Sequence record: PX670417.1
Source of the DNA: a phage
Strand: one strand, 5' to 3'
DNA: 64,000 nt
Shown here: positions 53,102 to 53,458 of the stretch, piece after piece
Layout: every line of letters begins with the position of its first letter
Position numbering within the stretch: position 1 is the first letter of the stretch
Notes under the pieces: model-generated
Told to the model about the DNA's origin: nothing
The model's database searches: none
What the model saw: only the letters and a program-made list of their open reading frames with translations
Position numbers and translations under genes: made by a program

Positions 53102-53458
53102 TTAAATCATTGTAATTCCACTATGAACCTCTCTATGGCAATTAGCACATAGTAAAACACATTTATCAAGTTCTTTTTTAACCTTTTCCCAAGATGCACC
53201 CATAAGTTTTGATGGTGTATTCTCTTTTTCGTTTGGGTTAAGGTGATGCCATTCTAAAGCATTTTTACATTTATTATAGCCACAAATTTTGCAACTATCG
53301 CCATATAATTTATATGCTTTCTCCCTATTGGCATCCTCTCTGAGTTTCGTCCTTAATGCACAACATTTTAGACAATTTACTCTATTACCGGCGTTGCCAT
53401 TCTTATGAATGCTATGTTCAGTTAAGCCATGAACTGGGCATTCTTTTAAAAATCTCAT
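53102..53458 (-). CDS. HNH endonuclease embedded in tRNA array
   Basis: Cys pairs plus EWHHLNPNEKEN ... CANCHREVH (HNH motif); start set to ATG 53458 with AAAGGGG RBS so as not to overlap tRNA-Pro. Confidence 0.65.
   Translation of the reverse strand: MRFLKECPVHGLTEHSIHKNGNAGNRVNCLKCCALRTKLREDANREKAYKLYGDSCKICGYNKCKNALEWHHLNPNEKENTPSKLMGASWEKVKKELDKCVLLCANCHREVHSGITMI

Follow-up and report, generated by a model that had tools for sequence, protein, structure and literature searches.

In phage T4, SegB is a GIY-YIG homing endonuclease encoded within the cluster of transfer RNA (tRNA) genes. Its recognition site is the T-loop motif of tRNA genes, and it spreads along with the tRNA genes next to it (PMC2330249). 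SegB homologues are significantly associated with tRNA genes across phages, and amplification of tRNA genes by SegB can allow escape from a defence that cleaves tRNAs (PMC13096335). Here, we analysed an HNH endonuclease gene between tRNA-Pro and tRNA-Glu in the tRNA array of a Felix O1-like phage of the genus Felixounavirus, Ounavirinae (record PX670417.1; the whole stretch of 64,000 nt that was analysed is called the window). Like SegB of T4 and T6, it is a free-standing nuclease gene among tRNA genes, is absent from close relatives, goes together with a flanking tRNA and has tRNA-associated homologues. Unlike SegB, the window protein is of the HNH type, and whereas cleavage, T-loop site and homing of SegB are experimental, the present case is built from sequence comparison. 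The protein is probably SegB-like in function, yet it stands outside the SegB family. A GIY-YIG domain was not found in it with Pfam and PHROG, where HNH families alone match.

HNH genes are also the commonest protein-coding genes in the tRNA arrays of mycobacteria and mycobacteriophages (PMC5966550). It has been suggested that those of mycobacteriophages and mycobacterial plasmids diversify the tRNA repertoire (Pope et al. 2014, cited in PMC5966550 and PMC6409571). As presented in these citing papers, they resemble the window gene in being embedded in phage tRNA arrays and implicated in the diversification of tRNA repertoires. They differ in hosts and phage lineages, the likeness is one of array position, and the mycobacterial reports, to the extent quoted there, are comparative as well. 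MobE of T4 is a free-standing HNH endonuclease with intronless homing, and both homing and trans-mobilisation were shown by experiment (PMC2790892). It shares with the window gene the small HNH protein, the absence of an intron or intein, the intergenic position and the patchy occurrence, but it sits between nrd genes and not between tRNAs. In the genome of Felix O1, six HNH copies were counted, inteins excluded, while presence/absence mapping and a link to tRNA alleles are not described there (PMC3185647). Felix O1 belongs to the same genus as the window phage, and two database annotations tie array HNH genes of relatives to its proteins NP_944863 and NP_944871.

Our analysis indicates that the open reading frame (ORF) at 53102-53458 probably encodes an active, free-standing homing-type HNH endonuclease which resides in the Ounavirinae tRNA array. 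Read in this way, it is an ordinary but well-documented example of the selfish nucleases of phage tRNA arrays, to which the swap of a tRNA allele is linked. New in detail are the cassette structure, i.e., a nuclease with its own tRNA allele, and the extent to which this HNH clade is associated with tRNA arrays. The following features make up the locus:

53579 to 53699, minus strand: two sigma-70-like promoters, TTGACA-17-TAATAT and TTGACA-18-TAAAGT, upstream of tRNA-Pro

53476 to 53552, minus strand: tRNA-Pro(UGG), anticodon tgg, first gene of the array, found by ARAGORN and Rfam

53464 to 53470, minus strand: Shine-Dalgarno-like AAAGGGG, 5 nt upstream of the HNH start codon within the 17-nt leader that follows tRNA-Pro, read from the sequence

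53102 to 53458, minus strand: HNH endonuclease ORF of 118 amino acids, ATG at 53458 and TAA at 53104-53102

53026 to 53100, minus strand: tRNA-Glu(UUC), here called Glu-A, anticodon ttc, Rfam tRNA with 55.4 bits (match 53029-53100), starting 1 nt past the HNH stop codon

53026 to 53471, minus strand: polymorphic cassette of leader, HNH gene and Glu-A, which replaces AAT plus the usual felixounavirus tRNA-Glu (Glu-B), as defined by alignments of occupied and empty alleles

A preliminary description of this DNA had placed an HNH gene between tRNA-Pro and tRNA-Glu, and the ORF, the Pfam and PHROG matches and the Rfam tRNA-Glu agree on this. The ORF is contained entirely in the spacer: it starts 17 nt past tRNA-Pro, its stop codon ends 1 nt ahead of tRNA-Glu, both tRNAs are intact, and there is no intron or intein. 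A similar leader precedes the HNH homologue in Cronobacter phage Csp-D17.

Occupied and empty sites: A 7.7-kb stretch around the HNH gene has matches in 404 phage records, of which 218 match over at least 80% of its length with 90-98% identity. When 50,697 phage records were searched by tblastn, the protein was present at 99% identity or more in three only (Salmonella phage Meda and Escherichia phages DE7 and nataliec), and the next best match had 57% identity. In relatives without the HNH gene, e.g., CL1 and SP22, the gap between tRNA-Pro and tRNA-Glu is 7 nt, AATTAAT. A 176-nt probe across this Pro-7 nt-Glu-B junction matched contiguously in 216 records; the gene is thus polymorphic at a fixed locus, with three carriers versus 216 empty sites, and is missing in about 98% of close relatives. 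The same sequence AATTAAT recurs as a spacer between tRNA-Leu(tag) and tRNA-Lys(ctt) and between tRNA-Gly and tRNA-Thr (e.g., 50688-50694, 50442-50448).

The carriers are not each other's nearest relatives and do not form one clade on flanking genes, since the adjacent Ro60-like gene of the window is closer to that of HNH-less phages (BPS15Q2, 98.0% identity; JN01 and PHB11, 97.1-97.2%) than to that of the HNH-bearing nataliec (93.8%) and Meda (94.7%). A second pair of occupied and empty sites comes from outside the genus. An 85%-identical HNH orthologue occupies the same spacer in L089, an 84.7-kb Mooglevirus-like contig, and in the short metagenomic contig L090, each time beside a Glu-A of the type found in Mooglevirus HP1. 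At this site, HP1 looks exactly like L089 minus the insert: it reads CCA-AATTAAT-GTCG where L089 reads CCA-AATTCAAAGG...ATT-TAA-T-GTCG.

The linked tRNA allele: In felixounaviruses, the HNH gene comes with a different tRNA-Glu. Glu-A and Glu-B are only 57% identical, and the tRNA-Pro sequence is identical in the alignment whether a phage carries the HNH gene or not. Identity to HNH-less relatives restarts upstream at the CCA-AATT past tRNA-Pro and downstream at the CCA of tRNA-Glu; because it restarts exactly at both ends, the polymorphism is a clean swap of a cassette of about 450 bp. Glu-A is identical (100%) in all four felixounavirus carriers. Linkage was complete among the felixounaviruses examined, with no case of Glu-A without the HNH gene and none of Glu-B with it, which is the best indirect sign that the nuclease may bias the inheritance of its neighbour.

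As the anticodon loop of Glu-A reads CCUUCAA (CCTTCAA in DNA), it is a tRNA-Glu(UUC); the discriminator base is A. A uridine is near-universal at tRNA position 33, where Glu-A has C. A C:U mismatch closes the anticodon stem and the minimum free energy (MFE) fold is not a cloverleaf, yet this tRNA is conserved in four genera. One T-stem pair is A:U in the window and G:C in HP1, and this compensatory change argues that Glu-A is under structural constraint. The ARAGORN run on the window misses Glu-A, which Rfam detects. It is also unannotated in the records of nataliec, Meda and DE7, of which DE7 lists zero tRNAs and is, therefore, uninformative on detection. Carriers consequently look as if tRNA-Glu had been lost, and the practical effect on annotation is that their tRNA-Glu is overlooked.

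The locus matters because the tRNA arrays of phages differ greatly among close relatives and the drivers are only partly understood. The Pro-Glu site is a clean natural example, in which a nuclease gene is inherited together with a tRNA allele as a single unit, and culturable coliphages offer occupied as well as empty sites (nataliec, DE7 and Meda versus many HNH-less phages). Crosses at this locus could ask directly whether HNH enzymes, like SegB, move tRNA genes.

The protein: The ORF matches the Pfam HNH family PF01844 (E 8.9e-5, 23 bits at a gathering cut-off of 21.4) and PHROG 2255, 'HNH endonuclease' (E 2e-29). A sequence search against PDB chains gave a best E of 0.08, and one against NCBIfam no match. 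The motif of the HNH superfamily consists of a His as general base and downstream Asn/His metal ligands on a beta-beta-alpha core, and many members have a structural zinc site with two CxxC pairs on either side of the motif. Across 73 aligned homologues, C7, C32, C56, C59, H71, H72, C104, C107, H108 and H112 are invariant, and the pattern EWHH (His at 71-72) followed by N106-C-H108-x3-H112 is invariant or nearly so. Both CxxC pairs are present (C56-x2-C59 and C104-x2-C107) and form a putative zinc site. A second putative zinc site lies in the N-terminal sheet (C7, H10, C29, C32).

The AlphaFold model has a mean predicted local distance difference test score (pLDDT) of 94.1 and consists of a three-stranded N-terminal sheet, a long helix and a C-terminal strand-strand-helix core (residues 68-113). 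Foldseek hits of this model are weak (E 0.2-2), and the plausible ones are all HNH domains: Cap5, Gme HNH 4H9D, the Cas9 HNH domain and T4 endonuclease VII. Copies of the ORF differ at 4-18 of 354 nt between felixounavirus carriers and at about 70 of 354 from L089. The ratio of non-synonymous to synonymous rates (dN/dS) is 0.03-0.08, with a dS of up to 0.27 among the felixounavirus copies. Since nearly all changes are synonymous, the protein is kept by strong purifying selection. A tblastn search with four HNH paralogues found the intact gene alone and no decayed copy in the other long spacers of the window.

Paralogues: Nine felixounavirus arrays and L089 were mapped. The tRNA backbone is constant and several spacers are variable. 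Across these and further relatives, at least four spacers besides Pro-Glu hold paralogous HNH genes, of which those at Gly-Thr, Arg(tct) and Met-Ile are 34-51% identical:

tRNA-Gly to tRNA-Thr: HNH paralogue in SP22, PHB11 and BPS15Q2; the empty spacer also reads AATTAAT

tRNA-Arg(tct) locus, directly after it: HNH paralogue of 115 amino acids in SP22 and JN01

tRNA-Met to tRNA-Ile: HNH paralogue in the IMG/VR felixounavirus L046; this spacer is 1 nt in the window

tRNA-Ser to tRNA-Leu: a more distant HNH gene in SP22

tRNA-Asn to tRNA-Asp: another HNH ORF in Suspvirus mistaenkt; its relative CHB7 has tRNA-Tyr there

The ORFs in the Pro-Glu, Gly-Thr and Ser-Leu spacers end alike, with ..TT TAA T abutting the next tRNA. 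In L046, the spacer from tRNA-Tyr to tRNA-Asp, which is 6 nt long in the window, also holds an insert, of 457 nt; the coordinates of insert and HNH paralogue taken together are 1636-2092 and 2753-3248. Long array spacers mostly start with AATT or ATTT and finish with ATTTAAT, as if all inserts had entered one type of spacer, or as if these bases were processing signals.

The tRNA-Arg(tct) locus repeats the Glu-A/Glu-B pattern. Felixounaviruses have either an ordinary tRNA here, as in the window (51355-51431), or an 82-nt tRNA-like element which lacks the D-arm, keeps the anticodon loop CTTCTAA and has a long variable region (L003 5496-5577; same place in L001, L092, L094 and L095). The HNH paralogue at this locus occurs only beside the D-arm-less allele.

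The preliminary description had further suggested that a mobile HNH gene may have contributed to rearrangement of the array. Its mobile-gene part is supported: the gene is sporadic (3 versus 216) and not at the identical position in all relatives, the local tRNA-Glu allele is replaced, and paralogues lie beside a replaced or missing tRNA in two cases. The two signs of rearrangement offered with it, a T-arm fragment and an atypical tRNA-Trp, do not fit and are treated below.

Beyond the Felix O1-like phages, homologues at 38-60% identity are frequent in viral metagenomes; IMG/VR yielded 191 confirmed stretches, and a large collection 1,422 protein clusters. Among 53 non-redundant IMG/VR loci, 43 have a tRNA within 3 kb, a tRNA on the same strand is within 100 nt in 29, and 15 have tRNAs on both sides; these are raw counts with no matched background rate. 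In Acinetobacter phage Aci05, the homologue comes after tRNA-Ile within the array. In Cronobacter phages Csp-D17 and CR3 (Vequintavirinae), it lies in tRNA arrays directly upstream of tRNA-Glu(ttc). Import of HNH gene and tRNA-Glu from Vequintavirinae was considered and rejected, as Glu-A is only 59-60% identical to the tRNA-Glu(ttc) of Csp-D17 and CR3; the conserved HNH-then-Glu order in these phages remains a curiosity. A comparison of the Felix-like, CR3 and Aci05 junctions gave no shared DNA motif at the insertion site beyond the upstream CCA and the ribosome-binding site. In two unrelated IMG/VR phages (L007 2314-3173 and L033 2548-3317), very divergent copies of tRNA-Asn(gtt), some with long variable arms, stand on both sides of the HNH gene, which is reminiscent of a nuclease carrying its own copy of the neighbouring tRNA.

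If the gene is a homing endonuclease, its spread could be pictured as follows. Transcription from the promoters ahead of tRNA-Pro would cover the HNH gene together with the array, and the ordinary 3' and 5' processing cuts of the adjacent tRNAs would free a short HNH mRNA. The promoter pair likely drives both the array and the HNH gene; the two are consensus matches only, with a frequency not above that in shuffled sequence, and are kept in relatives. Upon co-infection with an HNH-less relative, the enzyme would nick or cut the relative's genome at or near the Pro-Glu junction. Repair templated by the donor would then copy the HNH gene and the adjacent Glu-A, with two conserved sequences, tRNA-Pro and the 30 nt that follow tRNA-Glu, serving as homology arms. 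The donor allele would be protected either by the insertion splitting the site or by Glu-A having no site. As a net outcome, inheritance would be biased towards the cassette, and the recipient would have its tRNA-Glu allele replaced.

Patchy distribution, clean insertion, the linked allele, selection, the confident model, the behaviour of the paralogues, the tRNA-array habit and the SegB precedent together make homing the probable explanation. Several points weigh against it. For cleavage site, nicking and biased inheritance, the argument is comparative throughout. The alignments show no gradient of co-converted single-nucleotide polymorphisms flanking the cassette; the foreign tract ends sharply at both sides, and such ends fit any recombination between conserved arms. 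Protection of carriers cannot come from flank polymorphism in the HP1/L089 lineage because the flanks are identical there. The gene is also rare (about 2% of relatives), unlike a strongly driving element at equilibrium. Divergence of the HNH gene between carriers (4/354 to 18/354 nt) roughly follows flank divergence, a pattern that fits long vertical residence equally well as recent spread. Finally, three sister genera have Glu-A as their allele, so that it may be ancestral, and it may have been Glu-B that invaded and displaced the HNH gene together with Glu-A.

The latter points lead to a different history, in which the HNH gene with Glu-A is the old Ounavirinae arrangement, recombination that brought in Glu-B removed the HNH gene from most felixounaviruses, and the nuclease was passive in its own inheritance. 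Glu-A is indeed 94.7-96% identical to the tRNA-Glu of Kolesnikvirus (phiEa21-4, ST-3), Mooglevirus (HP1) and Suspvirus (CHB7, mistaenkt), Glu-B is nearer to the tRNA-Glu of Vequintavirinae (74-79%) than to Glu-A, and the parallel divergence of gene and flanks agrees with such a history. In the sister genera, however, Glu-A lies 7 to 10 nt from tRNA-Pro with no HNH gene between them (phiEa21-4, ST-3, HP1, CHB7, mistaenkt). As most sister-genus phages examined have Glu-A without the HNH gene (HP1, phiEa21-4, CHB7, mistaenkt), the HNH gene itself is an insertion into the Pro-Glu-A spacer. Moreover, the low dN/dS is not expected of a useless nuclease, the combination of Glu-A without HNH gene occurs in no felixounavirus examined, and the paralogues are equally patchy at four or more other spacers. 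We consider passive loss unlikely.

It is similarly doubtful that the nuclease has been domesticated and helps the phage, either by marker exclusion of co-infecting phages or by amplification or exchange of tRNA genes against tRNA-targeting defences of the host, as for SegB of T6. SegB amplifies tRNA-Tyr and thereby allows escape from Septu (PMC13096335). The purifying selection on the ORF, the residence of the family in tRNA arrays throughout, the unusual anticodon loop of the linked Glu-A and the divergent duplicates of tRNA-Asn around the homologues in L007 and L033 would all suit a useful nuclease. But about 98% of the relatives manage without the gene, the tRNAs of the window are single-copy so that amplification is not visible, and Glu-A is tied to no defence system.

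That the protein is a packaging-associated HNH nuclease like HK97 gp74, assisting the terminase about 5.5 kb away, is extremely improbable and was rejected because of its distribution: it is small, and its gene shares a genome region with that of the large terminase subunit (45945-47561, identified by Pfam), but the gene is missing in about 98% of relatives with the same terminase and is not beside terminase or portal genes, and the homologues in unrelated phages go with tRNA arrays and not with terminases, whereas terminase-associated HNH proteins of the gp74 type are conserved partners of the terminase and portal genes in all related phages.

Returning to homing, the idea can be extended, speculatively, to the whole HNH clade. 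It would be specialised for phage tRNA arrays, and each member would travel with its own cleavage-resistant allele of the neighbouring tRNA, such as Glu-A with C33 or the D-arm-less Arg(UCU)-like element. Homing endonucleases would then be an engine of tRNA-allele swapping and diversification, possibly including anticodon-loop variants that escape tRNA-targeting defences of the host, and the clade would be an independent HNH counterpart of SegB. We regard this extension as a long shot.

The array as a whole comprises 25 tRNA genes called by ARAGORN on the minus strand (47991-53552), to which Rfam adds one (53029-53100). Two further ORFs, which the preliminary description had listed as interrupting it, indeed lie inside:

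49351-49908: ORF of 185 amino acids, DUF7338 in Pfam, with a hydrophobic N-terminus

48165-48899: ORF of 244 amino acids, DUF7217 in Pfam

Unlike the HNH gene, both are found at the same position in 9/9 mapped felixounavirus loci. They are stable, non-mobile residents of the array among felixounaviruses.

A more unusual item than the HNH gene is the Ro60/Y-RNA reading of the neighbouring spacers. It concerns the following features:

53718 to 55133, minus strand: Ro60-like gene (TROVE plus vWA; Pfam DUF2828 and DUF7788), directly upstream of the array and outside the cassette

52942 to 53021, minus strand: module M1, directly downstream of Glu-A, basal stem TGAC-AGA-AGACCAA ... TTGGTCT-G-GTCA

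52788-52854, minus strand: module M2, between tRNAs, basal stem as in M4

About 52293-52376, minus strand: module M3, motif and MFE fold only

52148 to 52286, minus strand: module M4, YrlA-like Y RNA candidate, containing a T-arm at about 52214-52230

The AlphaFold model of the Ro60-like protein has a pLDDT of 89.6, and its top 11 Foldseek matches in the PDB are all Ro60, Rsr or TROVE structures (E 1e-8 to 4e-7, template modelling (TM) score up to 0.66). Judged from the model, the DUF2828 plus DUF7788 protein is a predicted full-length structural homologue of Ro60/Rsr. A preprint on felixounavirus Bas63 reported a Ro60-like fold for the corresponding gp130 and speculated that some annotated tRNAs are Y RNAs (PMC11482910).

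M4: The T-arm that the preliminary description took as a trace of rearrangement belongs to this conserved, covarying tRNA-mimic RNA. Read on the minus strand, M4 consists of a basal stem (TTAC-AGA-AGACCGT ... ACGGTCT-G-GTAA), a small hairpin, a canonical T-arm, a loop-closed acceptor-like stem and a canonical D-arm. It lies in the 458-nt spacer between tRNA-Asp and tRNA-Lys and is conserved across Felixounavirus, Mooglevirus and Suspvirus (12/12 aligned Ounavirinae loci). Some 250 phage records match it at high identity, whether they carry the HNH gene or not, and it is unannotated in most of those sampled. The acceptor pairing differs by genus yet stays complementary (ACTCGGC/GTCGAGT, CCCTTC/GAAGGG, ACACGTT/GGCGTGT). 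In the alignment of 12 sequences, pairing holds in 96.9% of cells, three acceptor pairs are changed on both sides and 0/500 shuffles reach the score; the 12 sequences represent three types only, and in a short hairpin a single patch replacement or template switching could also yield complementary changes. RNAalifold gives agreeing helices.

YrlA is a tRNA-mimicking Y RNA bound by bacterial Ro60 (PMC4201824; bioRxiv 10.1101/312249). RNAs of this type are encoded within about 4 kb of the Ro60 orthologue on the same strand (PMC4201824); M4 sits 1.4 kb downstream of the Ro60-like gene, also on the same strand. In the tRNA-like domain of YrlA, T-arm, closed acceptor stem-loop and D-arm lie between the strands of the basal stem (bioRxiv 10.1101/312249), and M4 shares this order of elements. 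The proposed contact of Rsr/Ro60, GNCGAAN0-1G near the 5' end of the Y RNA (PMC4201824), is missing from M4, whose 5' strand reads ACAGAAGACCG. The Rfam families for Y RNA and YrlA gave no match to M4 at E up to 10. We propose M4 as a candidate YrlA-like Y RNA and tRNA mimic with putative Ro60 binding. Interpretations of the T-arm as a rearrangement scar, as part of a permuted tRNA gene or as a two-piece transfer-messenger RNA (tmRNA) were dropped after comparison with the Ro60-like neighbour and the published YrlA architecture.

M1 to M3: These modules share the basal stem NNNC-AGA-AGACC(AA/GT)...(TT/AC)GGTCT-G-GNNN, the outer pairs of which covary (TGAC/GTCA, TTGC/GCAA, GAGC/GCTC). A covariance model built on M4 found M1 and M2 at E of about 1e-6 (M1 39 bits, E 2.5e-6). 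M1 to M3 are possible YrlB-like Y RNAs. The 5' strand of M1 is the conserved sequence that holds the downstream boundary of the cassette.

Downstream of M4, at 52003-52147 on the minus strand, a long helix ATCTTTGTAGATAAG...CTTATCTACAAAGAT encloses about 120 nt. In a second allele (DE7, HP1, CHB7 and others), the pairing is kept with a different sequence, CTTTGCAGTGAC...GTTACTGCAAAG. This is possibly another structured RNA.

The spacer between tRNA-Ile and tRNA-Arg(tct) (51432-51768, minus strand) begins with a promoter-like TTGACA-17-TATAGT. It has a weak match to a tmRNA body (17 bits, E 8e-4) and a tag-like frame, ANDNVFLAVA, which ends in two stop codons. In relatives (L094 4672-4944; L003 5496-5768), the element just downstream matches the ends of the tRNA-like domain of tmRNA (22 bits, E 9e-7). 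ARAGORN called no tmRNA at this spacer, and the order of body before tRNA-like domain is unlike that of standard or permuted tmRNA.

An atypical tRNA-Trp, as named in the preliminary description, was not recovered by ARAGORN or Rfam, and the sole atypical tRNA is the following:

49928-50002, minus strand: orthologue of the tRNA-Arg(acg) of relatives, with an anticodon loop of 6 nt, i.e., 1 nt shorter

Its loop is changed from CTACGAA to CTACGA, a U-to-C change turns a G:U of the anticodon stem into G:C, and the discriminator is changed from G to A. It could be a pseudogene, a sequencing error or a tRNA with altered function. The adjacent spacer between tRNA-Leu(caa) and tRNA-Arg(acg) is filled by an ORF of 35 amino acids (MSNKSIAKKF...; 50003-50116, minus strand) with a strong Shine-Dalgarno sequence, AGGAGAA. 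Some felixounaviruses have a spacer of 114 nt here and others one of 5 nt, which points to another presence/absence insert.

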